In this document: positions 25,533-46,556 of the stretch, one piece after another
Layout of the letters: each line of letters begins with the position of its first letter
Numbering within the stretch: position 1 is the first letter of the stretch
Assembly (NCBI GenBank): GCA_017615975.1
Contig: JAFZYZ010000027.1
Span: forward strand, 1-51,445
Length of the DNA stretch: 51,445 nt
Source of the DNA: Clostridia bacterium
Lineage (GTDB): Bacteria > Bacillota > Clostridia > Christensenellales > Borkfalkiaceae
Reading direction: 5' to 3'
Notes under the pieces: model-generated
The model's database searches: none
What the model was told of the DNA's origin: nothing
What the model saw: the letters and a program-made list of their open reading frames with translations, nothing else
Position numbers and translations under genes: made by a program

Positions 25533-25583
25533 TGATAATTTTGAGACAAGAGATAGAAATTAAGCGTATTTTTATAAAAAAGC

Positions 25584-25620
25584 TGGTAGTTTTGAAATAT
25601 AAGCTACCTTTTTTATTTTT
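25584..25620 (+). terminator. probable terminator after the XRE gene
   Basis: Imperfect stem ggtagttt / aagctacc, followed by ttttttattttt. Confidence 0.45.
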
Positions 25621-25733
25621 ACGGAAAGCACCTTTATTTCCTTAAAGTTGTTCTTTACAAAATCATACAATATACTTGTATTTTAAGATAAAACATGATA
25701 AACTTAATATAATAACCTGAAAGAGGTGTAAAT

Positions 25734-25940: not shown

Positions 25941-25941
25941 C

Positions 25942-26334: not shown

Positions 26335-26415
26335 GAAAAATGTTTTTAATATGAACGGAATTGTCATATTTGTTATGCTAAACTTGGTTTAGCATAAAGC
26401 AGAAGGGTGTATTAA

Positions 26416-29286: not shown

Positions 29287-29287
29287 A

Positions 29288-30112
29288 ATGGATAATTCTG
29301 ATTACAGGGTAAAATTAAAACTTGATTTTGCAGAAGAGGAAAAAGTAAAAGATTTTCTTGCAAAGGCTTATTGTGCTTTTTCTGAATCTATACAAATTGA
29401 TAATGAGATATCAAGTGAAACATTTAATAATTTTTGTTTCAGTGCAGGAGTTAAGGCAGACTTAGTTTACTATAATGAATATGTGAATTCACCATTGATT
29501 TTTAAATTTTTACAAAAGCATACAGATTCACTTGTGGATTTTATATACTACTTTTCAATACTTGTTAATTCATGTAAGTATAAAAGTGCTGAACAAAATA
29601 GTTGGATAAAGGCATTTAATTATTGGGCAAGTTTGGCTTGTTTACAGTTTGACTTTATTGAAGATGAAAAAAAGTTTTTTATATTTCCTAAAGGTGCGAA
29701 GGAGTTAGATGATAAATTGATTTCCGAGCCGTTGGAGTGGTTAAAAGATTATAAATTATCACATAAAGCATTTATTAAAGCACTAAAAGATTACTCTGAA
29801 GTAGATGAAAACACGGCAAGTCAGGTTGCCGACAATTTAAGAAAAGCGTTAGAAACTTTCTTTCAAGAATTTTTTGAGACAAGTCAGTCTTTGGAAAACT
29901 GTAAGAGCCTTTATGGTAAATTTATGAAAGATAAAGGGATTTCGACCGATATTTCTAATAACTTTGAAACTCTTTTGCAATTATATACGAACTACAATAA
30001 CAATAACGCAAAGCATCATGACAAGGCAGAAATAAAGGCGTTAGAATATATTTTATATCAAACAGGCGCAATTATAAGACTATTGATTACTTTAAAACAG
30101 GAGAACAAATAA
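29288..30112 (+). CDS. 274-aa predicted all-helical protein of unknown function, translationally coupled between the helicase-nuclease and the methyltransferase
   Basis: ATG 29288 lies 1 nt after the upstream stop and has a GGAGAG SD. Its stop lies 1 nt before the next ATG. I recognise no catalytic motif. Confidence 0.7.
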   Translation: MDNSDYRVKLKLDFAEEEKVKDFLAKAYCAFSESIQIDNEISSETFNNFCFSAGVKADLVYYNEYVNSPLIFKFLQKHTDSLVDFIYYFSILVNSCKYKSAEQNSWIKAFNYWASLACLQFDFIEDEKKFFIFPKGAKELDDKLISEPLEWLKDYKLSHKAFIKALKDYSEVDENTASQVADNLRKALETFFQEFFETSQSLENCKSLYGKFMKDKGISTDISNNFETLLQLYTNYNNNNAKHHDKAEIKALEYILYQTGAIIRLLITLKQENK

Positions 30113-30113
30113 A

Positions 30114-31964
30114 ATGGCTATTAAGTATATACCATTCTTTCCAGAACCTATCGAAGGACAAGCATTGCTTGATAATTTTAAAAGAACTTTAAGATATAAA
30201 GGCGCGGGCGAAGTGCAAGATAAACTTCGTCGTGGTATGCCGCTTTACGAAATGGAAAAAGTAGAATCGGTACTCGGCGGTAGCGATGAAAATCTTGTTA
30301 TTCACGGCGAATGTGTTTCCGCTTGTGCTTATTTTAAAGATAAAGGCATAAAAGTTGACCTTGTTTACATAGATCCGCCGTTTGCAAGCGGAGCAGATTA
30401 TGCTAAAAAGATTTATATTCGTAAAAATCCGAAAGTTGCCGAATTGATTGACAAAGCCGAACAGGAACTCGATAACGACGACTTAAAAGAGTTTGAAGAT
30501 AAAATGTACGGCGATGTTTGGGATAAAGAAAAATATCTTAATTGGATGTACGAAAATTTAATGGCAATAAAATCCGTTATGAGCGAAACGGCGTCCATTT
30601 ATGTCCATTTGGATTGGCATATCGGACATTATGTGAAAATTTTAATGGATGAAATTTTTGGTGAAGATAATTTTAGAAATGAGTTAATATGGAAATATTT
30701 TGGACCAACGAGTGGCAAGAATAATTATCCACGAAAACATGATGTTATTTATTTCTATGTAAAGAATATTGAAAAATATTATTTTGATTTTAATGCGTGT
30801 TTAGTAGATTATGACGAAAAAGCAATAAAAAGATATGATAAAATCGATGAGGATGGTAGAAGATATAAATTATATAACGAAAAAGATGGGACAGTACGAA
30901 AAGCCTATATGAATGAAGGAACGCCTACTGAAGTTTTTGAGATTCCTGGGATTCAAAATCCAGACTATGCAACACAAAAACCCGATGAACTTGTGTCTCG
31001 TTTAATAAGGGCGTCGTCAAACGAAAATATGATTGTTGCGGACTTTTTCAGCGGTAGCGGCGTTACATCGGCAGTTGCAAGTAAATTGAACAGAAAATTT
31101 ATAGCAGGCGACGTAAACTTAAATTCTATACAAACGACAAGGGATAGGCTTGTTTCTATAGGTGCAAAGTTTGATTTGTTGGAAATAAAAGACGGCGTTT
31201 CTTTATATCGCAACCCCGTGCAAACTATGGATAAAATAAAGTCGCTTATTACGGGGCTTAAAAACGAAGATTCGCTTGACGAGTTTTGGGAAGGCGCAAT
31301 TTCTGACAGCAAGTTGGGGCTAATTCCCGTTTACGTTCCTAATTTAATGGATAGTACTACTAAGCTTTTAGACGAAGTATTGATGAATCGTATTTTGCAC
31401 GAAGCAATACCTGAACTTGATAGTTCCGTTAAAAAAGTTATCGTTTATTACGTTGATATTACGGATAAAGCGGAAATAGAAAAGTTTATTAAAGACGACG
31501 ACAGTACTATGGTAGAAATCGAACTACGGGATTTAAAAGAAATTTTAGACGACGTTGTTGTTGATGATCATATTGAATTTACTGTCGAAGAAAATAAAGA
31601 CGATTTATTGGGCGGATATATTATTTCCGTAGATAAATTTATTAGCGACAGGGTAAGCGGAAAGATATTAGAATTTAACCAAAAATCGCTTGCAAATTCA
31701 AGCGAGAAAAAGCCGTATAAACCTATTACTATAAGTGAAGACGGTTTAGAGATGATAGAATTTATTTCGCTTGATTGCACGGCAGACAGCGGTGAATGGC
31801 ATTCCGATAGCGAGATAAAAGTAGAAGGCAAAACGAGTTATGTAACTATAAACGGCAAAAAGACAAAAGAGTTTTGGGACGGCACTATCAAGTGCGAGAA
31901 AAAGCCTTTACGCTTAAAAGTCCGTAACATCTGCGGCGACGAAAGCGTAGTTATTGTAGAATAG
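30114..31964 (+). CDS. beta-class N6-adenine/N4-cytosine DNA methyltransferase (PF01555-like), 616 aa, with a ~270-aa C-terminal extension
   Basis: Motif IV DPPF (30372-30383) comes first, then HLDWHIGHYVKILMDEIFGEDNFRNELIW. ATQKPDELVSRLI and motif I ADFFSGSGVT (31041-31061) come later, which is the beta permutation. Residues ~345-616 have no recognisable motif. Confidence 0.85.
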   Translation: MAIKYIPFFPEPIEGQALLDNFKRTLRYKGAGEVQDKLRRGMPLYEMEKVESVLGGSDENLVIHGECVSACAYFKDKGIKVDLVYIDPPFASGADYAKKIYIRKNPKVAELIDKAEQELDNDDLKEFEDKMYGDVWDKEKYLNWMYENLMAIKSVMSETASIYVHLDWHIGHYVKILMDEIFGEDNFRNELIWKYFGPTSGKNNYPRKHDVIYFYVKNIEKYYFDFNACLVDYDEKAIKRYDKIDEDGRRYKLYNEKDGTVRKAYMNEGTPTEVFEIPGIQNPDYATQKPDELVSRLIRASSNENMIVADFFSGSGVTSAVASKLNRKFIAGDVNLNSIQTTRDRLVSIGAKFDLLEIKDGVSLYRNPVQTMDKIKSLITGLKNEDSLDEFWEGAISDSKLGLIPVYVPNLMDSTTKLLDEVLMNRILHEAIPELDSSVKKVIVYYVDITDKAEIEKFIKDDDSTMVEIELRDLKEILDDVVVDDHIEFTVEENKDDLLGGYIISVDKFISDRVSGKILEFNQKSLANSSEKKPYKPITISEDGLEMIEFISLDCTADSGEWHSDSEIKVEGKTSYVTINGKKTKEFWDGTIKCEKKPLRLKVRNICGDESVVIVE

Positions 31965-32036
31965 TTTCAGTTGTTCTAATTAGAAAAGGATGTAATAAAA
32001 AGATAATTACTACGAAATATTTGGAGATATTAACGA

Positions 32037-35000
32037 ATGTATCAAGCGATAAAGCGGTATTGCGAGAATGATAAACAAAATGGTCTTTTCCTTTTGGATA
32101 TGCCAACGGGATTTGGAAAGACTTATAATGTTATTAAGTACATTTATGATGCTTCTATAAATGAGGCTAATAAGGATAAAAAATATTTTTTTATTACTAC
32201 TTTAAAAAAGAACCTTCCGACAGTTGAATTAGAACAGTGGTTTAAAGAAAACGGTAAAGCTGATCAATTTAAAGAAAAGTTTTTGTTTATTGACTCCAAT
32301 GTAGATTGTGCGATCGAACATTTAACGGAAAAAGTTAAAGATTTAATTCCTAATGACATTAAAAAAACAGATGAATACAAAGAATTTGAAAAAGGTATTA
32401 GATTTCTCCAATCACAAGATACAGACACGAAACTGAAGGCTTTTGTTAGTAGTATTCAGGACACATTAAGAACAAAGACAGAACCCGCTTTTAGAAGACT
32501 GCTACAGACTATGTTAGCAAAAGAGTATCCATCAGTAGATAAAAGGTTGTACGCAATTAAAACCGAAAAACGATGGCAATGGCTTGGCGAATTATACCCT
32601 GCAGTTTTTACGAAGGATCGTCAAATAATTTTTATGAGCGTGGAAAAATTTTTGTCTCGTAATTCAACTATTGTTGAAACTTCTTATGTGTTTTATAATT
32701 CGAGTATTATTGAAAATGCAGTTATTTTTATAGATGAATTTGACGCAACAAAGGAGACGATTCTTAATAATATTATACAAAATGGTTTGCGTGACAGAAT
32801 AGATTATGTTGATTTATTCCTTTCTATATACGGTCCATTGCAAACCGCTTCTTTTCCAGCAGCATTAACAATACCATCGAAGAAAAGAAAAGCAAGCGAT
32901 TATGCAAATCAATCGCTTCAAGCTGTAATTGATGGGATAAAAGAGAAAGCGGAAATAATTTATGATACATACTCTCTTCAATTTAATCACCGCACAAATG
33001 TAGATGAAAATAATTCACGTAATTTTTTGTTTCAAGATCATCAGTTTCATTCTGTGCTAAACGGCAACAATAAATATGTCACAACAACGAGTATCAAAAC
33101 TGATCGTATAAATGCCATAAAGTTTACTGAAGAAAGACCAGAACTGGAATCAAACAATATTCAAATATTGCTGGGTAAACTAAGAGGTTTTATTTCGTGG
33201 TTTCTTGGCGGGGTAAATATTCTTGCAATTAACTATATGCAACGAAAGTTGGAGGAAAAGAGAGATGGAGATGAAGATTTTACCTTTGAATATGCAATTC
33301 GCTCGGTCTTATCACTTTTCCGTTTAAATCAGATATATATAGACTTTTTAACATCACAAATTCTTATTTCAAGCCATAAGGCAAAAGGTGATATTCAAAG
33401 TTCAGAATTTGATAAAACATTTTATGAGAACGGGTTCAGGTATTATGCTTTTGAAGATGATGCTGGACACGATATGCAATCTCGTATGATGATGTGTTCT
33501 TTTCAAAATACACCAGAAAAGATTTTATTAAGATTTTGTGAGAAAGCGAAAGTAATCGGTATTTCTGCAACAGCAACTATAGATACCGTTGTTGGCAATT
33601 TTGATCTCGATTATCTCAAAGCAAAAATGCAATCTTCTTACGTTGAAATGTCAGATGAAGATTATAATCGTTTGAGTCGCAATTTTGAGGAGACTCAGTG
33701 CGGATATAATCAAGTCAATATTCATACGGAACTTCTTGGTGATACTGACTACAATTCATATGGGATCAAGTCGTGGCAGCGTGTTTTTGATGACAGAGAA
33801 ATTGCTGAAGAAGCATATAATATTGTCCAACGAAAACGTAGTGATAACGAAAATAATTATAATTCAGAGCGTTATCTTAGAATAACAGAAGCATATAAGC
33901 AGTTCTTGTGCCATGCGGATATTAAATCGTTTCTTTGTGTTCTAACTAAACATCCACAATTTAAAGATAGTACTCTTGATTTGAATACAATTTATGATCT
34001 TTTTGAATTAACAGCAAAAGTGTTTCAACCTGGCTTTGATGCACGCAAATCGGTAGTGAAACTTGATGGGGATGAATTTGATCAAAAGAAGAATGATGTA
34101 ACACGAAGGTTAGAAAGAGGTGAAAAACTCTTTGTAATTTCAGTATACCAGACGATTGGTGCCGGGCAAAATCTCCAATATAAAGCACCTGCGACAATAA
34201 TAAAATCGCTTATAAAGGTCAATGACCGTGATAGTGGCGAAAAGGATTACGATGCTATTTATCTTGACAAACCAACAAATCTTTTAGTGAATTTTATTCA
34301 AGGACAGTCAGTCGAAGAAGATCAGTTTGCAAAAGCGTTATTTCAATACGAATTTTTACAAGAAAATGCGGAAATATCGATTGATGAAAGTGTTAAATCT
34401 ATTAAAAACGCATTTCGTGCATTCATGAGTAATGGGTCAGCAAAAGGAGAATATGTTTCCAATCAGCGTGATTGTAAAAGCATTAGAATGTTGGCAACTC
34501 GGTATATTATTCAGGCAATAGGAAGGATTTGTAGGACAAATTTAAAGCAAAAGGATATATATGTTTTTGCAGACAGTCGAATAGCAGAAAGTTTAGATGT
34601 CAGTGTTGTTGAAAAAAGAATTGTTAATCGTGAGTTTTCCGCGTTATTGGGTCGAATTTCACAGGTTCATTACAAATCACCAGAGGAGCGTTCGCTTGAA
34701 GCAAAAGCGGCTTTAACTTCAATTCGGGTAAACAAAGATATACGCAACATGATAGAAGAAGATTGGAACGATAAGAGTATAGAGAAATGGCAAGTACTTC
34801 GTGATCTCGTTTTAAGATATCCAACGCTATCGCACGAAGAAGTGTCTCGTAATTTTGTGGCATATAATTATTATGTAGAGATGCCTAAAAAGGCAAATCG
34901 TATTTATTACAATCAAGAAGAAGATTTTAATAAGATATCGGTTGGTTTTGTAAAGGCTTCGGAATATAAGTATACTTTATCGGCGGAAGGGGCTAAGCTT

Positions 35001-35519
35001 ATTCAATTAATGTCGTTTCCTGATATTAAACAGTATTTTAAATCTGCTGGATATGCTACCGAATTTGCCGAAAATGACTTTATTATGTCCCCACCACTTT
35101 GGAATAACATATACAAGGGAGCTTTGGGGGAAGTTGTGGGAAGGTATTTGTTTAACAAGATTCTGTCTGTCAAATTGGATGACATTACCGATCCTGAAAT
35201 ATTTGAGCTTTTTGACTTTAAGGTGAGATCATCTTCTGTATTTTTAGACTTTAAGGACTGGCAAGAATCAACTGATTCTAACTGGGACAAGCAGATAAGA
35301 AAGATTACAGAAAAAGCAAACAAATGCGGCTGTAAATGTGCCATTATTGCTAACATATTGACGGCGAATAGCAGATACAGTGTTAGGGAAAGCACTGAAA
35401 ACGGTGTCCATATATTAATTGTGCCTGCACTGCTTTTAGAGTCTACTCATGATGTTTACACGGATGCATGGAAAAAAATTAAGGAGTGCATTGAGAAATA
35501 TGGCGATTCAGACCAATAA
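32037..35519 (+). CDS. Rad3/DinG-like SF2 helicase with a C-terminal PD-(D/E)xK-like nuclease segment, 1160 aa (DdmD-like architecture)
   Basis: Motif I PTGFGKT (32103-32123). Motif II FIDEFDAT (32727-32750). GISATAT and YQTIGAGQNL. Motif VI QAIGRICR (34512-34535). C-terminal ELFDF..VFLDFKDW (D1060, D1071-x-K1073; nt ~35202-35255). The helicase call is solid; the nuclease and DdmD-like calls are inference. Confidence 0.6.
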   Translation: MYQAIKRYCENDKQNGLFLLDMPTGFGKTYNVIKYIYDASINEANKDKKYFFITTLKKNLPTVELEQWFKENGKADQFKEKFLFIDSNVDCAIEHLTEKVKDLIPNDIKKTDEYKEFEKGIRFLQSQDTDTKLKAFVSSIQDTLRTKTEPAFRRLLQTMLAKEYPSVDKRLYAIKTEKRWQWLGELYPAVFTKDRQIIFMSVEKFLSRNSTIVETSYVFYNSSIIENAVIFIDEFDATKETILNNIIQNGLRDRIDYVDLFLSIYGPLQTASFPAALTIPSKKRKASDYANQSLQAVIDGIKEKAEIIYDTYSLQFNHRTNVDENNSRNFLFQDHQFHSVLNGNNKYVTTTSIKTDRINAIKFTEERPELESNNIQILLGKLRGFISWFLGGVNILAINYMQRKLEEKRDGDEDFTFEYAIRSVLSLFRLNQIYIDFLTSQILISSHKAKGDIQSSEFDKTFYENGFRYYAFEDDAGHDMQSRMMMCSFQNTPEKILLRFCEKAKVIGISATATIDTVVGNFDLDYLKAKMQSSYVEMSDEDYNRLSRNFEETQCGYNQVNIHTELLGDTDYNSYGIKSWQRVFDDREIAEEAYNIVQRKRSDNENNYNSERYLRITEAYKQFLCHADIKSFLCVLTKHPQFKDSTLDLNTIYDLFELTAKVFQPGFDARKSVVKLDGDEFDQKKNDVTRRLERGEKLFVISVYQTIGAGQNLQYKAPATIIKSLIKVNDRDSGEKDYDAIYLDKPTNLLVNFIQGQSVEEDQFAKALFQYEFLQENAEISIDESVKSIKNAFRAFMSNGSAKGEYVSNQRDCKSIRMLATRYIIQAIGRICRTNLKQKDIYVFADSRIAESLDVSVVEKRIVNREFSALLGRISQVHYKSPEERSLEAKAALTSIRVNKDIRNMIEEDWNDKSIEKWQVLRDLVLRYPTLSHEEVSRNFVAYNYYVEMPKKANRIYYNQEEDFNKISVGFVKASEYKYTLSAEGAKLIQLMSFPDIKQYFKSAGYATEFAENDFIMSPPLWNNIYKGALGEVVGRYLFNKILSVKLDDITDPEIFELFDFKVRSSSVFLDFKDWQESTDSNWDKQIRKITEKANKCGCKCAIIANILTANSRYSVRESTENGVHILIVPALLLESTHDVYTDAWKKIKECIEKYGDSDQ

Positions 35520-37317
35520 AATCGAAGCTGAAATAAATTACGTAGCACTTGATAATAAATATGATTTTTTTGTTTTAACAACTACAGAGAAATACATTAA
35601 AGGCGGAGCAATGATATTAGATGCGCCGTCATCAATACTTCGTGTACAAGCAATACATTTTACCAACGGAAAATGTTTTTTCGTTATGGTGTTTAAATCT
35701 GCAGATAATAAAAACAAATTAAAGGAATTAATACAATCATATAGCGAAGGTAGATATTTAACTATCAATCAATTAAACAGTAGCGATCTTGAAGAAAAAG
35801 ATTTGCTCCAGTTACTTATCAATGGATTGTCTAATTCACGCAATCCATTACTTGGGTTTAGCAATTTAACAGGACATTTATATTGTTTCCATCCATCATG
35901 GCTTAAACATAAAAGGACAGGGTCTCAAGAAGAAATAGTTAAAGTGCCCTGCATTGAATTTCATGTAGTAGACGAAAATAAATTATTGATAGATGTAAGG
36001 ACTTTCAGTTCAGTAAAACTTAGGAATAAGATCACCTTTCGCAAAAAGAAATTTGAAGAATATCCTAAGTATAGTTTCGCAACAAATAATACATTAAAGC
36101 GAATAACTGAATCGTGCGACGATGCGAGTTATATTTTAAGGCAAACAGATGGTGCAAAGACAGAAATACCGTTTTTGGACATTCTAAATACCGAAAAATT
36201 TATGCAAAGCAAAATGGGTGTTTTATCTGCCGTAATTGAGCAATTCAATAAGGTATATGTGGGGGAGGCGTCTATTAAATTTAGTAGCATAGACGAGTAT
36301 AAACGAATAGACCATAAGAAAAAAGCAGAGGAAGAAAATAAATCGAGAGTTGTTTCCATTTTAAAACAGAACAAAATACGAATTGTTGATCAAATAGGGA
36401 ATGGGTATTCAGAAGAGTTCTGTAAAACAATGTCGAGATTATTGGAAAGAAAATATGGAATTAAACCCTCTTTAGGGACCCGCTTATCAAAAAATGGACT
36501 TAATATAGTTTTAATACACAATGCAGCCTATTATATTGATGTGGAAGATCCGCATGATGTTGTTAAGTCAAATTATGCTATTCAACATGTTACATTAGAA
36601 GATTTTTCTAATAGTGCTGAATTTGCGATTGCTACTGTTGTTAATGAGTTAATTATTAAAGATGATTTGAGATCTGGAAAAATATCATTATTTGATTGGA
36701 AACGACTTTCATTTCAAGGTGATTTTATATTCGGGACTGAGGTTGTTGAAAACGAAATAAAAAAATATTTGTTTATGCGTATTCATCCAGATGGCTCTTT
36801 TGTAATACATAAATGTGAATTTGATTTATTTTCTGCAAATGAATATATGAAATATGCAAAAATATATGAAGATGCTAAAGTTGCTTCTGAAACGGTTCGA
36901 GGCATAATAAGCGATGATAAAGGAAATATAAATATTATTAAAGATACGGATTGGTTTACAATTCCAAATATTAACTGTATTAAATCTGAGTTAGAGAAAG
37001 GTAATACAAAGATTCGGGGCAAAGAGGCAAGAATGCGTTTTCTCGATGCAATATTAGATATAAAATGGTTTCAAAACGGGGAAGATGTTTTCTATTTTGC
37101 AAATGACATTGGGGACGGAATGCGCACATTAGTGCAACGTGCTGCGAATATAAGAAAAATAGTTGCACATGAGAACTCGGAATTGTTTTTTGATAAAATC
37201 TCCCCATTGTTTGATGTGACTTTTGTCCGCAATGGTCAGTTAACAGTTGTTCCGTTCCCGTTCAAGTATTTACGAGAAGATTTTGATTATATGAAAAAAG
37301 TTAATGAAGATGACTAA
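35500..37317 (+). CDS. 605-aa protein with a MID-PIWI-like C-terminal half, predicted catalytically inactive (pAgo-like / DdmE- or PIWI-RE-like candidate)
   Basis: ATG 35500 overlaps the upstream gene by 20 nt, with AAGGAG 13 nt upstream. NIVLIHNAAYYIDVEDPHDVVKSNYAIQHVTLEDF fits the MID-type K..Q pattern. FIFGTEVV sits at the GxDV position, IISDDKG at the RDG position, and VVPFPFKYLRE matches PxPxxYA[HD]. The CDS is well supported; the fold assignment is by eye only. Confidence 0.45.
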   Translation: MAIQTNKIEAEINYVALDNKYDFFVLTTTEKYIKGGAMILDAPSSILRVQAIHFTNGKCFFVMVFKSADNKNKLKELIQSYSEGRYLTINQLNSSDLEEKDLLQLLINGLSNSRNPLLGFSNLTGHLYCFHPSWLKHKRTGSQEEIVKVPCIEFHVVDENKLLIDVRTFSSVKLRNKITFRKKKFEEYPKYSFATNNTLKRITESCDDASYILRQTDGAKTEIPFLDILNTEKFMQSKMGVLSAVIEQFNKVYVGEASIKFSSIDEYKRIDHKKKAEEENKSRVVSILKQNKIRIVDQIGNGYSEEFCKTMSRLLERKYGIKPSLGTRLSKNGLNIVLIHNAAYYIDVEDPHDVVKSNYAIQHVTLEDFSNSAEFAIATVVNELIIKDDLRSGKISLFDWKRLSFQGDFIFGTEVVENEIKKYLFMRIHPDGSFVIHKCEFDLFSANEYMKYAKIYEDAKVASETVRGIISDDKGNINIIKDTDWFTIPNINCIKSELEKGNTKIRGKEARMRFLDAILDIKWFQNGEDVFYFANDIGDGMRTLVQRAANIRKIVAHENSELFFDKISPLFDVTFVRNGQLTVVPFPFKYLREDFDYMKKVNEDD

Positions 37318-37436
37318 TGATTTTGTAATCACTAATGGTAAATGAACTTTCCATACTAAACAAGTATTTAGGCGAGAGTAGTTTAAGGGATACTACTAGA
37401 ATTATGTTTTTATAGAGAAATGTTTGGAAATACACT

Positions 37437-38954
37437 ATGGATATTTTAGAAAAAATAAGTGAATTATATGGGAAAATTTATAAATACAATTCTTTACTTT
37501 TAAAAAAATCAGAAGATTTATTGTTAGAAAATAAGTACGATTTTGATGATATATTTGATTTTTATATAACTTCACATGCTTTAGGATATTTGAAAAATCT
37601 TTATTTCGGGAATATACAAAGTGCAGGGTTTTATCTTAATATCAGATGTATTATAGAAGGACTTGCTATAAAACAGTTAAACGCTCAAGGTAAGATAAGC
37701 ATTGAGATGAAACAACTACTGCAAAAGCAAGTTTTTTTAATAGAATATAAGAACTATTTTCAATTCAGTGATATATCTGATAAAATTTTATTACCAGAAA
37801 AATTACAATATGATTATGATAAAGCTGTCGAATATTATAAGGAAATACTACACAATCGATTTGATAATAAGACGATATTAGAAATATGCAAATCGAAAAT
37901 CCCATTTTTATGCAATCCAAAGATTAGTTTTCATAAAATAATTGAAAACACTTTAGGCGAAAAAGCAACTTCCATATATGGGATATATAGTTCAATGATA
38001 CATTCGTCGAATAATATTCCTTATACAATGGAAGAGCTTAATAATTTTGCTATCGCCATATTCCCATATATCGTTGAAAACTTTGATGTATTACCGAGTG
38101 GCACTTCGCTAAAGGATGAACTATATTTGTTAGCGTCTCAAATAGGGAATTCATTAACCCAGTGTTTTACGGATATAGGCGATATACTAATAAATGTTGC
38201 AAATGTTTTTGAAAAAAAATTTAATAATAATTATGTCACAAATACTTTTAGAAAATTATCATATGTTCTGTCAGATTTTGCAATAGAAAAAAACATTGGT
38301 TTAACAGAACAAATAAAAAGTAAGTGGAAAATCCTTTTAGAACATTTTGCCGTCTTTAATTTTCAATATTTTAATGCTAAACATGACGAAAATATATATA
38401 AATTAATGGACAAGCATAGAATACTTCAAGAAAAAAGGAATCTATCAATAAAATTTGTTTTAGATGACGAATATGAACTTTACTGTAAAATTTATTCAAC
38501 TAATCACTGTGAAAAGGCCACATTTGATAAAGCATTTTTACAGCCTCTAGGTTATCTAATTAACGAGAAAGGGATTGTGCCTAAAATCGTAGATTTAATA
38601 AAAGATTTTTCAAAACTTTTTGGGGCTGATAAGTTAGGGGAAATAACTGCCGGAAAATCTATGATTTTAGATTACGTTGAAAGTCAAATGATATCTCATG
38701 CTAACGGATATATGTGGTTTGCAAATAATGGCGCTTGGGGAGATGTAAACAGCGTTCTAATCAATACTTTGTTAAGCATAAAGTTGATTCTAGAAAAAAT
38801 GCAAGCTGTTTTTAAGGTTCATAGAGAAATAGAAGGGACAAAAGAATATAAAACAATAATAAATCTCTTAAGGAATAGTCTAAAAAAGCTGGATGTTAAT
38901 TTGAAAAATTTGCTTGAAATATTAAGTTTGCCAATGATTAAAAAGCCTTATTAG
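37437..38954 (+). CDS. 505-aa predicted all-helical protein of unknown function
   Basis: Long ORF in the same orientation as its neighbours, very AT-rich. Two internally similar halves each carry an R/K-x-hydrophobic..E segment and a later S-x-I/M-x-H motif (IYSSMIHSSNN; ESQMISHANGYMW). I can assign no family. Confidence 0.6.
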   Translation: MDILEKISELYGKIYKYNSLLLKKSEDLLLENKYDFDDIFDFYITSHALGYLKNLYFGNIQSAGFYLNIRCIIEGLAIKQLNAQGKISIEMKQLLQKQVFLIEYKNYFQFSDISDKILLPEKLQYDYDKAVEYYKEILHNRFDNKTILEICKSKIPFLCNPKISFHKIIENTLGEKATSIYGIYSSMIHSSNNIPYTMEELNNFAIAIFPYIVENFDVLPSGTSLKDELYLLASQIGNSLTQCFTDIGDILINVANVFEKKFNNNYVTNTFRKLSYVLSDFAIEKNIGLTEQIKSKWKILLEHFAVFNFQYFNAKHDENIYKLMDKHRILQEKRNLSIKFVLDDEYELYCKIYSTNHCEKATFDKAFLQPLGYLINEKGIVPKIVDLIKDFSKLFGADKLGEITAGKSMILDYVESQMISHANGYMWFANNGAWGDVNSVLINTLLSIKLILEKMQAVFKVHREIEGTKEYKTIINLLRNSLKKLDVNLKNLLEILSLPMIKKPY

Positions 38955-38992
38955 ATTTTTGATAATGTTTATAATAAATAAAGGATATCCAA

Positions 38993-41900
38993 ATGAAAAT
39001 AATTAAAAGTACGCAATTGAAGAAATGGTTTTATTATAATAGCAGAAAAACTCAGTCTATTTTTCCAGAATTAATACGAAAATTAATTCGTATGTCAATC
39101 AATAGAACTTCAAATATTCATTTACCATCAGGGGATTCTATATATACTACAGGATGGGATGCTATTGTCAAACATAATGAAGTAAAGCATGAGTTTGTGC
39201 CACTAGGATCATCCTTTTGGGAATTGGGGACAAATAACAATAGTGTAGCAAAAATAGAGGCTGATTATAAGAAAAGAAAAGCTCAATCTACTATTTACGA
39301 CAAATCTCAATATACATATGTTGCAGTAACATCAAGAATTTTAGACTCTGGGAAAAAGGAGGAAATATGCGAACAAATAAAGAAAGATAAAAATTTTAAA
39401 GATGCAATAATTATTGATGCAAATGATCTAGAATGTTGGCTGGAAGGCCATATTGATATTACAATTTGGCTGTTAAACAAATACGAAGAAAGTATTAAAG
39501 ATTATGAAATTAATACTGTCGAAAATATTTGGCAAGAGATATCGCAATCAACAAATCCAAAACTAACTGAAACAATTTTTACGACAGGAAATCAAGCGCA
39601 GGCTACTCGGTTTATTGATGACATTACAAATAATCTTGTAACAGGGAACAATTATTATGCGGTTTGTTCTCCTTTTTATGGGCAAGAGCATGCTTTATTT
39701 TTTGCTGTGGCAAGTATTATAAGTTCAAATAATGAAGCACTTATTGAAAGGAGTATTGTCGTAGAAAGTCAAGCTGGATTAGATATAATAAATGCATTTT
39801 GCGAAGATAAAATAATAATATTAAATTTTAATTGTTTCGATAAAAGATTAAGCAAAAACACAACAAACAAGTATATTTTTCTAGAAAATATAACGGCGGG
39901 AATTCAATTAGAATTAGTTTCACAGCAAGATTTTACAAAAGCTATAGAAACATTGGGATATTCAGCAGGCGAGGCATATAGGATTTCATATACAGTAGAA
40001 AATAATGCGGTTGCATTAAGAAGGTTGTTGGCACAAGTGCCAACATTAAAAAAACCACGGTGGGCAAGAGAGAAGAATAAAAATGACTTAATACCGTTAA
40101 TGATTTTGGGTGAAATAAATATGAATAAATTATCCGATATTGAGATGTTAAAAGCAATAGTTGGCGATAATTATGATCAGTATTTAGAAACCTTAAATTT
40201 TTGGACGGAAATCGGGTATGCACCTTTATATAAATATGAAGATGTTTATAGAATTTGTAGCAAAAAAGAATGTTTTGAAAATATTCAAGTTGATCACTTT
40301 TCAGTAAAAATCAAAAAAATAGAAGACAAGATAAAAGAATTGTTTTGCAATAAAGACATAGATAATAATCTATTTAATGAGAGAACTATAAGAAATATAA
40401 TAGAAGCGTTCATTATCATGGCGCAACAATCAGAAAGGAATCAACTTCATTTTGATTTTTACGTTGAAGAAATATTTAAAAATGTTAGTGGCAACGAAGT
40501 GCTTTATGAAAGAATAAAAACATTTTTGTCTCTTTTAGCAGAATTATCACCTCAAAAATTTATTAAATATATTGAAGGTGAAATTGCAAACGATAATCCT
40601 GTTTTTAATGCTTTGGTAAATAAAGAAAGTAGTGTTAATAGCTGCGATTTTGTAAACTATATATCTTATGGATTAGATAGATCTTTAAGGTTAAAGGAAA
40701 CCGTTGTAAAATCATTAAAAGTGTTGTTGCAACTATATTATCATGTCAATGAAAATCTGCTTCTATTAGAAAGAATTCAGGAAAGTTTTTCTCCAATTAC
40801 GGTTGGACTATTTCCCATTTCTTTACATAGAAAAACCGAACTTTTATTTAATTATATTAAAGATCAAGATTCGAATAAAACAAAAAAGATAATGGAAGGC
40901 TTATCATCTGGCGGTAAGCTGAATATGATGATTGCAAGCGCACGGTCTTATCGGCAATTTGATGAACAAGAAAAAATTCATTATACCTATCAAGACTATT
41001 TTGACCTGCAAAGCCAGGCGATAAAATGGTTAATTAATAATTCATCTCAGTCAGATTTAGCAAGTTTATTAGAGAAAGCTTTAAATAATATATATTATCG
41101 TCCAAAAAATTTGTTGTGTGAAGATTTAGAACAAATAAAACAAAAATGTTTAACTGACAACGTAAGCGATGAAGTAAAGGCTGAATTAAATGTTAAAGTT
41201 TTGTCAAAAATTGAGGATTTAAAAAAGTTTGATAGAAAGTATAAAAACGATTATTTGCCAATATTGCAAGAGTTTTTAGATGCTATTGCCCCAACAGATA
41301 CCTATATTAGTTATAGATATATGTTCACGCAAGATAATTTCCCATTAGCTAATCCCATAAAATTTGAAAGTAATGCAAATTGGTATGAACGGGACAATGA
41401 AAGTAGAGAAATATTACGCAAAAATGCCATTGAAGTTTTATTGAAAGAATATGGTGAAAATATTTTAGAAAGAATTATTAATGATGCCACAAAAAAATCA
41501 TATAGTATTTGGAAACTTCTCTTTTGTTATTCTAAAGACAAGGAAAAAGATATTATACAAATGATAAAACTTAAAGAACAGGTTGGGCTTTCTTTTTATT
41601 TATCTAGAATAGAAAATGCTGTTTTAGTTAAATATATAGACATCGCCGAAAATGAAGAGGATGCATTCATTTTTTCTTGTTTGCCATTTAATATCCAAAC
41701 TATTAATTTTGTAAGTGGTAAAACTAATGAAAAATTATATTGGGAAGGAAGGAGATTATATTTTAATGATGAATTATCTTTTGAGCAAGTATTCGATAAA
41801 ATGTTGAAGTTTTATCCAACAGGATTATTGGATTATTTTGCTTATAGGAGAGATTATTCATACGAGGAAGGAATTTTATTATTAAACGCATTGGCAACAT

Positions 41901-42655
41901 ATTTACAAGAAGAGAATAACGAAATAAGAAGACTGGATTTCTATTCACTAAAAGAAATAATAAAGAAAATGGACAATAAGTATTATACTAAAGAATTGTC
42001 CAAATGTGAATTTGACTTATTAGAGTATATATTAACGGATTTGGAAGATTATCCTTTAGGAATTAAAAAATATTTTTGGGATAATCCAAAGGAATTAGGA
42101 GGATTGCTGTCTGAATTGTATAATAAAAGAGATAAATTACAACAAGGAAGTTTAGGTGCTAAAATTTTTTTTGAAGCACACATATCACTAGGGGAAAAAT
42201 CATTTATTCCTAAAGAGTATATGTTGCAATATAAGGAAAAGCTTTATAGTTGGGCAATGGAGATAATTAATGTAAACTCTATAGATAATAAAAATTTAAA
42301 AATATTTTTGAAATTAGCTGTAATAAATACTTTAGCCAAATGCCCTAAAGAAATTAATGCTAAAATTTGGCCGATAAAAGAAGTAGCGGATATTTTAGAG
42401 GAATTGTCAAAAGAAGATTTTGATTCACCCGAAAGAGTCTCAAGCAATTTCTACTGTTCTTTTTTTAATACGAGAGGTATGAGAACAATAGGAAATGGAG
42501 AAGAGGAGTTTGTGTTAAATGAAGAGTATTTAGCATATAAAGACTACTATGATGTTTCCCATCCTGTGGTTGCCACAGCACTGGGATATATAGCAAATGG
42601 ATATAAGGAAGAAGGGGAAATGGACAAACGGTGGTATTTATTTGGGGAATATTAA
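38993..42655 (+). CDS. 1220-aa protein of unknown function; the N-terminal ~150 aa may be a restriction-endonuclease-like domain, the remainder looks helical-repeat-like
   Basis: AAAGGA SD 7 nt upstream. N-terminal FPELIRKLI..TTGWDAIV..GSSFWELGTNNNSVAKIEADYKKRK..YVAVTSR..IIDANDLECWLE (nt ~39125-39277), with D56/E77/K86 as candidate D..E..K residues. No P-loop is seen anywhere. Confidence 0.6.
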   Translation: MKIIKSTQLKKWFYYNSRKTQSIFPELIRKLIRMSINRTSNIHLPSGDSIYTTGWDAIVKHNEVKHEFVPLGSSFWELGTNNNSVAKIEADYKKRKAQSTIYDKSQYTYVAVTSRILDSGKKEEICEQIKKDKNFKDAIIIDANDLECWLEGHIDITIWLLNKYEESIKDYEINTVENIWQEISQSTNPKLTETIFTTGNQAQATRFIDDITNNLVTGNNYYAVCSPFYGQEHALFFAVASIISSNNEALIERSIVVESQAGLDIINAFCEDKIIILNFNCFDKRLSKNTTNKYIFLENITAGIQLELVSQQDFTKAIETLGYSAGEAYRISYTVENNAVALRRLLAQVPTLKKPRWAREKNKNDLIPLMILGEINMNKLSDIEMLKAIVGDNYDQYLETLNFWTEIGYAPLYKYEDVYRICSKKECFENIQVDHFSVKIKKIEDKIKELFCNKDIDNNLFNERTIRNIIEAFIIMAQQSERNQLHFDFYVEEIFKNVSGNEVLYERIKTFLSLLAELSPQKFIKYIEGEIANDNPVFNALVNKESSVNSCDFVNYISYGLDRSLRLKETVVKSLKVLLQLYYHVNENLLLLERIQESFSPITVGLFPISLHRKTELLFNYIKDQDSNKTKKIMEGLSSGGKLNMMIASARSYRQFDEQEKIHYTYQDYFDLQSQAIKWLINNSSQSDLASLLEKALNNIYYRPKNLLCEDLEQIKQKCLTDNVSDEVKAELNVKVLSKIEDLKKFDRKYKNDYLPILQEFLDAIAPTDTYISYRYMFTQDNFPLANPIKFESNANWYERDNESREILRKNAIEVLLKEYGENILERIINDATKKSYSIWKLLFCYSKDKEKDIIQMIKLKEQVGLSFYLSRIENAVLVKYIDIAENEEDAFIFSCLPFNIQTINFVSGKTNEKLYWEGRRLYFNDELSFEQVFDKMLKFYPTGLLDYFAYRRDYSYEEGILLLNALATYLQEENNEIRRLDFYSLKEIIKKMDNKYYTKELSKCEFDLLEYILTDLEDYPLGIKKYFWDNPKELGGLLSELYNKRDKLQQGSLGAKIFFEAHISLGEKSFIPKEYMLQYKEKLYSWAMEIINVNSIDNKNLKIFLKLAVINTLAKCPKEINAKIWPIKEVADILEELSKEDFDSPERVSSNFYCSFFNTRGMRTIGNGEEEFVLNEEYLAYKDYYDVSHPVVATALGYIANGYKEEGEMDKRWYLFGEY

Positions 42656-42684
42656 TGTAATAAAACATTAATTGGAAAATCATT

Positions 42685-42714
42685 AAAGTCGGTAGATAAC
42701 TATCGACTTTTTTA
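42685..42714 (+). terminator. rho-independent terminator ending the seven-gene block
   Basis: Stem aaagtcggtag / ctatcgacttt (one G-T pair) with loop ataa, followed by a T-run. Confidence 0.75.
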
Positions 42715-43076
42715 ATTTATTCCAGGCTAGATATAAGCGATTATCATACAGTAAACTGTAAAACTAATTTGATACAATAAAGAAAACAAATAAATATTAT
42801 AAACATTTTATTAAAAGCACTTGATTTTTTTGAAAAATTGTTTTAGAATATAATTGCATTTGGAAGAATGCGAGATTAGGTCGGCAGCGAAATGCTGGTT
42901 GTAAAATGACGGGATCTACTTTGCAGGGATGCAAGTTCCGCAGAGAAGATCAACTCAATTTATAATTAATATTTGACTGATTTGACCTTAGCGTACGAGC
43001 CCGTAGTGGGCTTATTATGTAGAGGTCTATTTTTATTTCTTCCTGTGCAAAAAATATTTTACAGGAGGATTTTTTT

Positions 43077-44132
43077 ATGGCAATCGATATTGAAAATATC
43101 GAACACACAATAGGTTATACTTTTGAAAATAAGGATCTATTGAAACAGGCGTTCGTCAGAAGGAGTTATTCAGAAGAATATGGCGGGCAGAACAATGAGG
43201 TATTGGAGTTTATCGGAGATAAAGCACTGGACCTTGCAGTTGTCAGATTGATGATGTTGCGGTTTGGTGAAATTACCGAAGATAAGGAATTGAGCGAGTT
43301 TAAGTTAACTAGTCCTAAGTATTTTAAGACAAAGCTCGGCGAGGGAAAATTTACCGACATAAAGAAACTGCTCGTTCAGAAAAAAACGTTATCAAAATGC
43401 ATTGATAGATTAGGATTTCATAAGCAATTGATAATGGGAAAAGGTGATATAGAACAAGGCGTAGAAAACCAAGATTCAGTAAAAGAAGACTTGTTTGAGG
43501 CAATAATAGGAGCGATTGCTCTGGATTGCGATTTTAATATGAGACAAATTAGTTATGTGGTTGACGCCATGCTTGATGTCTTGGCTTTTTTTAAAAATGA
43601 GGATTTTAATGCTAATTATGATGGCAACTATGTGTCGTGGCTACAAGAGTGGACACAATCGCAAGGGTATGGTTTACCAAATTATACGTATACCTTAAAT
43701 ACTGATGATAATTCATTTACTTGTCGTTTAACAATAACGGGGAAAGATGGTTTTAGACATTTTGAATTGGGTGATGGGTTTAGTCATGCAAAAGCAAGAG
43801 CTGTAGTTGCATATAAAACATTTATATACTTACGCGAACAAGGTATAATAAAAAATAGATTTGAAGATGCAGTTGGTAAACCGTATTTTGAAGAATCTAT
43901 CCGACAATTGAATGAATTATATCAAAAGAGATTAATAGCGAAGCCTGAATATTCTTTTAATGAAGAACATGATGAAAACGGTGATTCAATTTGGTTTTGT
44001 ACTTTAACAGTCGAAGGGTTTGAAAAGAAAGTAGAAGAAGGCTCTAATTCAAAAAAAGACGCTCAAAGGTTTGCTGCATATAATTTTCTTTGCTACATCA
44101 TGGGAATAGAGGAAGAATTAAAGGGAAATTAA
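43077..44132 (+). CDS. RNase III-family nuclease with two C-terminal dsRBD-like domains, 351 aa (accessory paralogue)
   Basis: Signature EVLEFIGD (43197-43220) and second catalytic motif EDLFEAIIGAIALD (from 43485), so all four acidic catalytic positions are present. Two alpha-beta3-alpha-like segments follow, ending in HAKARAVVAYKTFIYL and KKDAQRFAAYNFLCYI. AGGAGG SD. Confidence 0.75.
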   Translation: MAIDIENIEHTIGYTFENKDLLKQAFVRRSYSEEYGGQNNEVLEFIGDKALDLAVVRLMMLRFGEITEDKELSEFKLTSPKYFKTKLGEGKFTDIKKLLVQKKTLSKCIDRLGFHKQLIMGKGDIEQGVENQDSVKEDLFEAIIGAIALDCDFNMRQISYVVDAMLDVLAFFKNEDFNANYDGNYVSWLQEWTQSQGYGLPNYTYTLNTDDNSFTCRLTITGKDGFRHFELGDGFSHAKARAVVAYKTFIYLREQGIIKNRFEDAVGKPYFEESIRQLNELYQKRLIAKPEYSFNEEHDENGDSIWFCTLTVEGFEKKVEEGSNSKKDAQRFAAYNFLCYIMGIEEELKGN

Positions 44133-44187
44133 TAAATTATAATAAAAACAATGCTATCATAATGGAAAGTATTGACCTAGTCATAAA

Positions 44188-44217
44188 ATAGCGGTAGAGA
44201 ACCTATCGCTATTTTTT
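44188..44217 (+). terminator. rho-independent terminator after the RNase III-like gene
   Basis: Stem atagcggtag / ctatcgctat (one G-T pair) with loop agaac, followed by ttttt. Confidence 0.75.
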
Positions 44218-44341
44218 ATAGTTTATGGTAAAATATAAAGGTCAAAAGGAGGTGGGGCTATGATTGCGTAGGCGTCCACTATCGGCAAAGATAAGTGGAC
44301 GGGAAAATCAAAACAATTTAATAAAAACAGGAGGTATTTAT

Positions 44342-45835
44342 GTGAAAATAACGTATAAGGATTTTGTAGAAATCCAAAAGTTAAAGAAGCAAGGAATAAC
44401 GAGAAACGAGGCTGTCCTAAAAACCAAATACACGCAGTACGTAATATATAAATACTGGGATATGCCCGAAGACGTGTTCCTTAAAGAAAAAGACCAGACC
44501 AAGTCGGAATACAGCAAGTACCGAGACGTTATCGTCGAGATAATAAACGAGAACAGCACTCTTCCCGCAAACGTAATTCACGATAGGCTGAAAGAACGGG
44601 TCGGCGCGGAAAACCTTGCGTCTATGAATTCCTTTTATCGGTACTTAAAAAGCCTAAAGCAAAGGATGGGGCTATCCGACAAAAAGGTTTCAGTTCGCCA
44701 GATGGTAGAAGAAACTCCGATGGGTGAAGAAGCGCAGGTAGACTTCGGTCAATACCAAATGCCGAATATGTACGGTGGCGTAAACAGAGTATATTTCTTC
44801 TGTATGGTGCTGTCGTACAGTCGGATGAAATACGTGTACTTTCTATCAGAACCGTTCGACTCGCTGACGTTTGCCTATGCACACGAACTAGCTTTTAAGT
44901 ATTTCGACGGCAGGCCTAAAAGGATACTGTACGACCAAGACAGGACGATGGTAGTAAGCGAAAACTGCGGGAATATAATTTTCACTAAAGAGTTCGACGC
45001 TTACCGAAGAACGGCGGGGTTTGAAGCGATGGTTTGTAAACCTTACGACCCGGACAGCAAAGGTAAGGTAGAGAACGTCGTAAAGTTCGTAAAGCAAAAC
45101 TTCCTTGAAGGCAGAGAGTATTGCGGGATTGACGCGCTTAATAATCAATGCCTGGCGTGGCTGGACAGAACGGGGAACGGCAAGATACACCAAGCGACTA
45201 AAAAGACGCCGCGGGAGTTATTTGTTAAAGAACAGCCGAAACTTACAAAGCATCACCCCGTAGAAATCGACCTGAATAAAACGAGAGTGGCAAGGGTATC
45301 CGACCTATACTACGTGACCTACAAAAACAACAGATATTCCGTTCCGCCGAGTAAGTGCAAAATCGGGGACAGAGTAAAGTTGGAAGTCGAAGGCAATGCA
45401 CTCAATATTATCGACGTAGCGACCGACAAAAAGATAATTACTCACCGATTGCTGCAAGGGAAAGGCAAGGCAAACGTCGAAAGGGAGATGCCTATTGACA
45501 AGAACTACTTTAACAAAGCCAAAGAAAAGTACGAGTCAAGCAGCGTGGTAGTCAAGTTTATCGAAAGGATAGAGATGACAAAGCCACGGTACTTAAAAGA
45601 ACAGGCACGGCTGTTGCATAAAATAGAAAAGCAGTATTCAAAGGACGATATAATTTCCGCAATAGTGACTTGTTCGAGTGAAAATAGGTTTTGCTTTACC
45701 GAAGTGCTTTCGGAACTCTTGATTCAGGTAGGCGAAAGAAATCTTAAAGAGATAGCGCCGAAACGGACTGCGTCTAGGTATAAAAAACTCGCTAACTACA
45801 ATCTTTTGACGGAGGCTGACGATGGACTTATCTAG
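44342..45835 (+). CDS. istA: IS21-family transposase IstA
   Basis: GTG 44342 has an AGGAGG SD 8 nt upstream. N-terminal HTH. DDE core EEAQVDFG, LYDQDRTMV and PYDPDSKGKVEN. Confidence 0.85.
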   Translation: MKITYKDFVEIQKLKKQGITRNEAVLKTKYTQYVIYKYWDMPEDVFLKEKDQTKSEYSKYRDVIVEIINENSTLPANVIHDRLKERVGAENLASMNSFYRYLKSLKQRMGLSDKKVSVRQMVEETPMGEEAQVDFGQYQMPNMYGGVNRVYFFCMVLSYSRMKYVYFLSEPFDSLTFAYAHELAFKYFDGRPKRILYDQDRTMVVSENCGNIIFTKEFDAYRRTAGFEAMVCKPYDPDSKGKVENVVKFVKQNFLEGREYCGIDALNNQCLAWLDRTGNGKIHQATKKTPRELFVKEQPKLTKHHPVEIDLNKTRVARVSDLYYVTYKNNRYSVPPSKCKIGDRVKLEVEGNALNIIDVATDKKIITHRLLQGKGKANVEREMPIDKNYFNKAKEKYESSSVVVKFIERIEMTKPRYLKEQARLLHKIEKQYSKDDIISAIVTCSSENRFCFTEVLSELLIQVGERNLKEIAPKRTASRYKKLANYNLLTEADDGLI

Positions 45836-46556
45836 AATAAAAGATTTGGCGAACAGGTTAAGTCTGACTAACCTTGCGAGAAGCCTTACGGAAATACAAG
45901 GCACGGAAAAAGAGTGGCGGTTTTTGGAAAAGGTGCTACGGACCGAACAGGAAATACGCGACGGCAACAAAGAACAGACGCTAATAAAAAGAGCCAAGTT
46001 CCCAGTTATAAAAACGATGGAAGAGTTTGAACTGGACGCACAGGAAAAACTGACCAAGTGGCACTTAACTAAACTATCGGAAACGAAATGGATAGAAGAC
46101 AGATACAACGTTCTTCTAATCGGTAGTGCGGGAACGGGTAAAACCCATCTAGCCGTTGCAATCGGGTTAAAGGCGATAGGCAATAACAAAAAGGTAGTGT
46201 ATACGACGGTAAACGAGTTGCTGTTTCTAATAAAGACACAGCAGGAAGTTAAGAAAAGCAAAATCAAGTTGGACTACATAGAAGACTGCGACGTGGTAAT
46301 AATAGACGAACTCGGTTATACGCCGTTAAGCCGAGAAGAGACGCTTACCCTTTACAAAAAGATAGACGGACTTAATAAAAGGAAATCCCTTATAATAGCC
46401 ACGAACAGAACTTTCGAAGGCTGGGGAGACATCTTTTACGATGAACAAACAGCCGAGACCTTACTTGACAGAGTCGTAGAGAACTGTCAGGTAATAACAC
46501 TTACAGGCGGTAGTTACCGACTGAGAACCCACAAAGGTATATTTGACGTTAACTAA
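45822..46556 (+). CDS. istB: IS21-family ATP-binding helper IstB
   Basis: 244 aa. Walker A GSAGTGKTHL and Walker B VVIIDELGY. Overlaps istA by 14 nt, with a GGAGG SD. Confidence 0.9.
   Translation: MDLSRIKDLANRLSLTNLARSLTEIQGTEKEWRFLEKVLRTEQEIRDGNKEQTLIKRAKFPVIKTMEEFELDAQEKLTKWHLTKLSETKWIEDRYNVLLIGSAGTGKTHLAVAIGLKAIGNNKKVVYTTVNELLFLIKTQQEVKKSKIKLDYIEDCDVVIIDELGYTPLSREETLTLYKKIDGLNKRKSLIIATNRTFEGWGDIFYDEQTAETLLDRVVENCQVITLTGGSYRLRTHKGIFDVN

Follow-up and report, generated by a model that had tools for sequence, protein, structure and literature searches.

Two large genes behind a DdmDE-like pair in a Clostridia defence island are candidate single-gene immunity modules

Do two large genes that directly follow a DdmDE-like gene pair, on the same strand, belong to that system, or are they immunity genes in their own right? 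This question is raised by a 51,445-nt stretch of a Clostridia bacterium genome (contig JAFZYZ010000027.1; hereafter the window, meaning the whole stretch analysed), in which a protein of 505 aa (37437–38954, + strand) and a protein of 1220 aa (38993–42655, + strand) are encoded downstream of a DdmD-like gene (32037–35519, +; PADLOC DdmD, 1e-43) and a DdmE-like, prokaryotic Argonaute (pAgo)-like gene that is recognised weakly (35449–37317, +; PADLOC DdmE, 6e-9). A first-pass annotation, made from the letters alone, had described both open reading frames (ORFs) and the DdmDE-like nature of the upstream genes, and our analysis bears this out: the two ORFs have ATG starts at these positions, and every peptide motif quoted for them is present in the translations. 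When positions 37001–43000, where the DNA has a GC content of 28–30%, were shuffled 200 times, no stop-free run was longer than 176 aa, so these ORFs are not chance products. The DdmE-like gene is separated from the 505-aa gene by 119 nt, and the latter from the 1220-aa gene by 38 nt. An intrinsic-terminator-like hairpin followed by a T-run, which had also been predicted, closes the gene row at 42685–42710 (+).

We favour, at about even probability, the explanation that the two genes are separate single-gene immunity modules and not components of the DdmDE-like system. To evaluate their linkage we fetched 108 loci, searched them by tblastn with every protein of the island, and counted co-occurrence from the side of the 505- and 1220-families. 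Homologues of DdmD/E were found in one of the 29 other loci with a 1220-family gene and in one of the 79 other loci with a 505-family gene, and both of these are the same locus, a close relative of the window island that we denote L005. This is also the only other locus in which the 505- and 1220-families meet, and the only one in which all four genes are found together. Neither family therefore co-occurs with DdmD/E outside the lineage of the window and L005 among the loci fetched. For comparison, the characterised DdmDE systems of Vibrio cholerae and Lactobacillus casei, which act in plasmid defence, are described as two-protein systems.

The first-pass annotation had proposed the two proteins as candidate sensors or effectors of the DdmDE-like system, and had named homologues scattered in non-defence contexts with no conserved linkage as one observation that would speak against this idea. 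Linkage is indeed not conserved, so the connection to DdmDE fails on that count, while the residence of both genes in defence islands holds and is supported by their neighbourhoods. The attractive idea of large accessory subunits for DdmDE is thus left unsupported, and two separately testable candidates take its place. Neither gene is an ORFan, as had been suggested: the 1220-aa protein has 33 homologue clusters, with identities from 70% down to 17%, and matches phrog_18693 (6e-30), whereas the 505-aa protein is one of an unnamed family of proteins of about 500 aa from defence islands, for which 1.84 billion representatives contain 116 clusters when grouped at 90% identity and 261 when grouped at 50%.

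The PHROG match is the sole above-threshold match of the 1220-aa protein across Pfam, NCBIfam, PADLOC and PHROGs. A genome scan placed its close relatives (35–41% identity) in Clostridia, Bacillales, Erysipelotrichaceae and Christensenella, and more distant ones in Proteobacteria, Planctomycetes, Chloroflexota and other groups. By tblastn, members were also located on 20 plasmids and on a single phage-like contig, which came from human faeces. Their settings include conjugative plasmids and a conjugative element (between a CD1107-like gene and ArdC), a site beside AAA_21, DUF4268 and Fic genes, plasmids where they lie beside AbiEi/AbiEii, and plain chromosomal sites. An all-against-all BLAST of the genes within 4 kb at 30 loci revealed no recurrent neighbour. 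A search of a 5.8-billion-protein collection with the family profile, limited by its word pre-filter, returned known members only, and scans of viral contigs gave no confirmed relatives of either family. We found no mention of the RefSeq accessions or of the PHROG identifier in the literature.

Two plasmid-borne homologues, one from Shewanella baltica pS19502 (L108, 152–4264; 1370 aa) and one from Rhizobium gallicum (L109, 4725–8789; 1354 aa), carry an XRE/HigA helix-turn-helix (HTH) domain at their N-terminus. RefSeq/PGAP labels these proteins 'HigA family addiction module antitoxin' or 'helix-turn-helix transcriptional regulator', labels that follow the first ~90 residues of proteins of ~1360 aa. 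In two other loci, L001 and L006, a separate HTH_3 gene precedes the homologue.

What could the 1220-aa protein do? An AlphaFold2 model built on the 33-sequence alignment (pLDDT 87.2, pTM 0.65) divides it into three parts. The first (aa 1–170; 38993–39502, +) is a predicted PD-(D/E)xK-like domain of the restriction-endonuclease fold, delineated by the model and by invariant columns, and shows the strongest conservation within the family. Its predicted topology is alpha-beta-beta-beta-alpha-beta-alpha-beta, with helices at residues 17–36 and 84–97 and strands at 41–43, 57–62, 72–79 and 107–113. D56 stands at the start of strand 2 and E77 inside strand 3, and K87, D91 and R95 are on the helix that follows; these five residues and P70 are invariant in 33 of 33 members, although identities between members are as low as 17–25%. 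The predicted arrangement is that of a restriction endonuclease whose lysine is shifted onto the helix. The nuclease-like domain suggested by the first-pass annotation is supported in its topology and in the placement of D56 and E77, but the lysine was misplaced by one position: residue 86 is an alanine and the invariant lysine is K87.

The second part (aa 173–430; 39509–40282, +), read from the secondary structure of the model, begins with a small parallel alpha/beta domain, continues as a helical bundle and closes with a winged helix made of a helix and a beta-hairpin. The third (aa 438–1220; 40304–42652, +) consists of helices only and is predicted to be an alpha-solenoid, a putative ligand sensor that ends in the conserved motif N1159-x-R1161-G1162...G1169..E1172. 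A helical repeat of more than 1000 aa had been expected; the solenoid is indeed there, but it spans ~780 aa, and the residues from 173 to 430 are not part of it.

The order of the central module is that of the nucleotide-binding, helical and winged-helix domains (NBD-HD-WHD) in STAND nucleoside triphosphatases (NTPases). STAND-type proteins are defined by an NTPase switch, and the hallmark of the Avs proteins among them is a central P-loop with a Walker A (GxxxxGK[ST]) and a Walker B motif; Avs proteins are activated when they bind a conserved phage protein directly, and then oligomerise. The 1220-aa protein has neither Walker motif. The position of Walker A, the beta1-alpha1 loop, reads 'S..EA.AF', GK[ST] occurs in 0 of 33 members, and the 33-member alignment holds no conserved acidic Walker B. 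Not one member of the family matches an NTPase family of Pfam, and within the N-terminal half conservation is lowest in the central module. Because the protein lacks these defining motifs, we do not class it with the STAND NTPases. The earlier statement that it lacks Walker A, DEAD and HxK motifs stands.

Its tripartite order of effector, NBD-HD-WHD fold and C-terminal TPR-like sensor is nevertheless that of Avs proteins, with low TM-scores. The best match of the model in a Foldseek search of the PDB was EcAvs4 bound to a phage portal (8dgf_B; E 4.9e-6, probability 1.0, with both chains spanned). Ranks 2–4 were SAMD9, and EfAvs5 and the AVAST5 filament were within the top 50; the remaining top matches were HEAT/ARM/TPR solenoids with E about 1e-4. 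EcAvs4 (8dgf), Avs5 (9jap, 9nc9) and human SAMD9 (9zjz and related entries) share with the 1220-aa protein an effector, an NBD-HD-WHD-like module and a helical-repeat sensor. Unlike it, they have functional Walker A and B motifs and bind ATP, and the likeness is one of architecture only, not of close superposition (TM-scores 0.11–0.20).

A second line of comparison leads to PD-lambda-4A, a system reportedly described by Vassallo in 2022. The PADLOC model PD-Lambda-4_A (PDLC03991, 1283 positions) gave a weak co-linear match in 5 of the 33 members, the best of which (2e-4) aligns residues 541–655 of member P0026 with model positions 562–667; one of the 33 members matched PDLC03990. PD-lambda-4A has been renamed Avs8A, an Mrr-nuclease and STAND protein of the AVAST family that senses the major capsid protein, and degenerate Walker motifs have been described for KpAvs8 (10.1101/2025.07.02.662641; Nature 2026, PMC13581612). 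Avs8 is a single large protein of ~1250–1280 aa in which an N-terminal nuclease of the restriction-endonuclease type is followed by a STAND-type module and, at the C-terminus, a helical sensor, the plan also predicted for the 1220-aa protein, and the degeneracy of the KpAvs8 motifs is a further point of likeness. They differ in that the P-loop is absent from the entire 1220-family, with not one member retaining it, in that the genes within 4 kb at 30 loci include no conserved Avs8B-like partner, and in that the family is found mainly in Firmicutes and in diverse non-enterobacterial phyla, with an N-terminal HTH in some relatives. The protein is best described as a P-loop-less variant, possibly on a distant branch of Avs8.

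On the basis of the model, the 1220-aa protein looks like, and is read here as, an NTPase-dead, Avs-like single-gene sensor-nuclease. We propose that it combines a PD-(D/E)xK effector, a P-loop-less module of STAND order and a sensor solenoid of ~780 aa in an Avs/AVAST-like plan. The solenoid would bind a ligand derived from the invader, most likely a conserved phage or plasmid protein; binding would free the protein from autoinhibition, and its nuclease domains would then oligomerise without nucleotide hydrolysis. The assembled nuclease might cut DNA and so stop the invader or the infected cell. In the proteobacterial relatives, the XRE/HigA HTH would probably serve in autoregulation or as a DNA anchor.

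Several observations weigh against this proposal. The E-values of the Avs4 and SAMD9 matches are only 10–100 times better than those of generic HEAT/ARM solenoids, their TM-scores are low, and the Avs-like interpretation is drawn from a single predicted model. The 1220-aa protein of the window has no PD-Lambda-4_A match of its own, and its central domain has no match to any NTPase family at the level of hidden Markov models. The N-terminal domain is not recognised as a nuclease by sequence or profile search of the PDB and Pfam; its invariant lysine K87 sits on the helix after strand 3, and the canonical E+2 position is occupied by the invariant G79. More generally, phmmer and profile searches of the PDB with both proteins, both family profiles, a profile of the N-terminal domain and two fusion variants returned nothing meaningful.

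The modest margin over the solenoids and the low TM-scores keep a different explanation alive, in which the protein is not derived from STAND proteins but joins a nuclease to a DNA-clamping, HEAT-like solenoid; it would recognise foreign DNA structures directly, in the manner of FANCI/FANCD2 and other solenoid DNA binders, and cut them, its central domain being an unrelated linker or regulator. Solenoids that bind DNA or RNA (FANCI, FANCD2, SF3B1, cohesin SA2/Pds5) account for many of the matches with E about 1e-4, and the missing Walker motifs and NTPase matches, the relatives fused to a DNA-binding HTH, and the family-wide conservation of the C-terminal end, as would suit a constant ligand such as DNA, are all in keeping with such a clamp. 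We nevertheless regard it as unlikely: Avs4 and SAMD9, both STAND immune receptors, supply the four top structural matches and align along whole chains, the succession of alpha/beta domain, helical bundle, winged helix and solenoid is the STAND order, and the Avs8A model is matched, if weakly, in a co-linear manner.

The 505-aa protein is the second candidate. Nearly all members of its family are ~500 aa long and align end to end, and we found the gene in 73 metagenome loci, mostly from human gut and rumen. In 56 of 67 loci it has an upstream neighbour on the same strand within 300 nt, and these neighbours fall into 18 unrelated clusters, among them DUF2971-like genes (13 loci), SymE/AbrB-like ORFs (8–9), Hachiman HamB with HamA (7–9), RhuM (4) and NERD-UvrD helicases (2–3). 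AbiH lies downstream of the gene in 8 loci. The islands that hold family members also carry TIR genes, MmeI-like and type I restriction-modification systems, Hachiman, AbiH, and Schlafen/AlbA genes.

Two subfamilies have settled in distinctive arrangements. The first is a 689-aa variant with an N-terminal extension of ~180 aa (L064–L069, L089, L090 and L095), which in 8–9 loci is preceded by an ORF of 85–97 aa with the SymE/AbrB fold (Pfam SymE_toxin, 1.8e-9). The two overlap by 4 nt (in L064, for example, they occupy 1915–2202 and 2199–4268) and appear translationally coupled, in a toxin-antitoxin-like layout. The second is a sub-clade that lies 3–200 nt downstream of a Hachiman pair, HamA of 315 aa and a DEAD helicase of ~790 aa (L009/L011, 4676–9527; L049, L051, L055, L061 and L084), sometimes with a RhuM gene in between.

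Sequence and profile searches of the PDB, Pfam, NCBIfam, PADLOC and PHROGs with the 505-aa protein gave nothing above threshold. Its AlphaFold2 model, based on 104 sequences (pLDDT 94.1, pTM 0.93), contains 23 helices and no strands, and Foldseek found no match for it in the PDB (best E 0.06, TM 0.1) and none in BFVD (best E 0.18). Conservation was evaluated across 50 family members with identities down to 17%. E74 and Y181 are invariant, and R70, S185, H189, P190, E291, K296, K298, E302, F363, Y413, E415, H421 and Y425 are conserved in at least 90% of members. Two motifs stand out. Motif 1, Y181..S185..H189 ('YGIYSSMIH'; 37977–38003, +), lies inside the sole DUF5677-like stretch; motif 2, Y413-x-E415-SQ-xx-S-H421-ANG-Y425...N430 (38673–38726, +), is made of invariant or nearly invariant columns and constitutes, together with K294/K296/K298, the chief group of conserved polar residues in the C-terminal half.

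The His-containing motifs pointed out by the first-pass annotation are thus real and nearly invariant, but the two interpretations attached to them did not survive. The suggested internal duplication received no support from hhalign, which compared the profiles of the N- and C-terminal halves with a probability of 0.6% (E 0.093) and left the motifs outside the alignment. A likeness to HEPN/AbiV helical RNases goes no further than an all-alpha, defence-island-encoded protein with a conserved His at a helix end: the protein has no Rx4-6H motif, no match above threshold to HEPN, Abi, PADLOC or Pfam families, and Foldseek matched no HEPN structure in the PDB. It had also been stated that this protein lacks Walker A, but here a regular expression does find one occurrence, GEITAGKS (401–408); it is present in 2 of 104 members and falls in an all-helical region, and we consider it a chance match.

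One lead emerged below threshold. With E allowed up to 0.1, three of 50 members match DUF5677 (PF18928), for which we know of no function, the best of them being P0083 (residues 109–201, 8e-5). The best relative scores 23.2 bits, short of the gathering score of 27.1 bits, and the 505-aa protein of the window has no match. Residues ~109–201, with the Y..S...H motif, align to the C-terminal 100 of the 166 model positions; the 505-aa protein differs from DUF5677 in being three times as long and in its second conserved lobe. We describe it as a two-lobed all-alpha protein whose N-terminal lobe is distantly DUF5677-like.

With no match to any fold or family, a circumstance that also counts against our explanation, any proposal for the activity of the 505-aa protein is a guess. 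Ours, held with low confidence, is a stand-alone toxic or abortive-infection-type effector. It is prompted by the independent spread of the family through defence islands, by the toxin-antitoxin-like pairing of one subfamily with the SymE/AbrB-fold ORF, and by the pattern of invariant His, Glu, Tyr and Lys residues, which resembles an active site. The family would travel alone through the defence islands of gut and rumen bacteria, and its conserved residues (R70, E74, Y181, S185 and H189 in lobe 1; E291, K294/296/298, Y413, E415, H421 and Y425 in lobe 2) might line an enzymatic or nucleic-acid-binding pocket, a suggestion to which we likewise attach low confidence. A DUF5677-domain ORF whose anti-phage activity was assayed in Enterococcus is not among the five reported to be active against six phages (PMC12632615), which speaks against an effector role.

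The 505-aa protein could instead be a regulator, a chaperone or an anti-anti-defence accessory that can be plugged in behind Hachiman, NERD-helicase or DdmDE systems. In at least 13 of 67 loci the gene does lie 3–200 nt downstream of a helicase-nuclease system on the same strand (HamAB in 7–9, NERD-UvrD in 2–3, DdmDE-like in 2). The Hachiman-linked copies, however, come from one sub-clade, whose proteins have 508 aa, and a single ancestral island may account for them; in most loci a different gene lies upstream (DUF2971-like, RhuM, SymE-like, metallophosphatase, even an oxidoreductase); and the strict conservation of polar residues suggests an active site more than a scaffold, all of which makes an accessory role rather improbable.

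What would follow if our explanation holds for both genes? The joint claim, that the 1220-family is an Avs-like receptor clade without nucleotide binding and the 505-family a single-gene effector with a new fold, is a tentative one, and we would sooner doubt it than assert it. If true, the former would assemble a nuclease in response to a ligand without the NTPase switch that defines STAND proteins, in some members fused to an XRE-type HTH, and the latter would be a fold that is missing from the PDB and from predicted viral structures and lies outside PADLOC 2.0, yet is widespread in gut and rumen bacteria. A receptor of Avs-like type that lacks the P-loop family-wide would probe whether STAND-type immune assembly needs an NTPase switch; prior ground for NTPase-independent assembly is limited to the degenerate motifs of a single Avs8 homologue. 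For the 505-aa protein, a phenotype would add a class of effectors, and a negative outcome would mark a frequent passenger of defence islands.

We return to the arrangement in this lineage, where both genes sit behind the DdmDE-like pair and would probably be transcribed by read-through from it. A contiguous 10.7-kb block of four genes (32015–42713, +) is common to the window and L005, with 83.7% identity by blastn over 10,733 nt. It starts 22 nt upstream of the DdmD-like gene and runs to the terminator, the DNA similarity to L005 ending at 42713. Protein identity between the two loci (32037–42655 in the window, 3064–13663 in L005) is 94% for the DdmD-like protein, 74% for the DdmE-like protein, 89% for the 505-aa protein and 70% for the 1220-aa protein; either evolution is fastest in the two proteins presumed to act in recognition, or recombination has made the block a mosaic. 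The left flanks of the block differ between the two loci, and the window island is present unchanged in two further samples. Separate modules are not what one would expect from four genes with a common strand, short gaps and one terminator, kept as a contiguous block despite protein identities of 70–94% and differing left flanks, and this retention in L005 leaves room for a lineage-specific functional coupling. That the two proteins are accessory sensor or effector subunits of a co-transcribed, lineage-specific four-gene DdmDE-like system, as the lack of a predicted terminator before 42685–42710 and these same features would favour, is nonetheless very unlikely given the single co-occurrence with DdmD/E in each family, the many loci where each family is found alone beside unrelated genes, and the two-protein composition described for characterised DdmDE.

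The genes lie in a low-GC island (27–37% GC, about 25,000–44,000) within a background of 44–48% GC. Upstream of the DdmD-like gene, a ResIII helicase gene (956 aa; 26416–29286, +), a PADLOC PDC-S32 candidate (286 aa, 9e-24; 29252–30112, +) and a type III-like N6/N4 methyltransferase gene (30114–31964, +) form a tight three-gene row (26416–31964), in whose place L005 has genes for an AAA_15/AAA_21 ATPase and a type I S subunit. A PNPOx-like gene at the island's left edge (25918–26334) encodes a protein 93% identical to that of a metagenome contig, L007 (5622–6035), where the gene is followed by a 611-aa gene of unknown nature, a 505-family gene, an MmeI-like restriction-modification system and a T5orf172 gene. 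We checked the 611-aa gene as a possible DdmE-like gene upstream of a 505-family homologue, and it is not DdmE-like. The PNPOx-like site looks like an integration hotspot that is shared by the window and L007, with swapped cargo.

To the right of the terminator lies a gene for a 351-aa RNase III paralogue with a dsRBD (43077–44132; TIGR02191, 126 bits against a cut-off of 166; phrog_28637). The ~190 nt between the terminator and this gene (42850–43045, +) are locally GC-richer and fold with a minimum free energy of -66.7 kcal/mol (z = -5.3), a value that none of 200 shuffles equalled. They match no Rfam family (best match L10_leader, E 0.75) and could be a structured leader or a non-coding RNA tied to the RNase III gene. 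Together, the structured-RNA region and the RNase III gene make up a 1.5-kb cassette (42714–44221) with its own terminator (44185–44215). The right boundary of the island is formed by an IS21-family element (44264–46556) that encodes an rve/Mu-type transposase of 523 aa and an IstB ATPase of 244 aa. In L005 the cassette is missing and the IS21 end follows directly after the terminator, so that the left end of IS21 adjoins the four-gene block there too.

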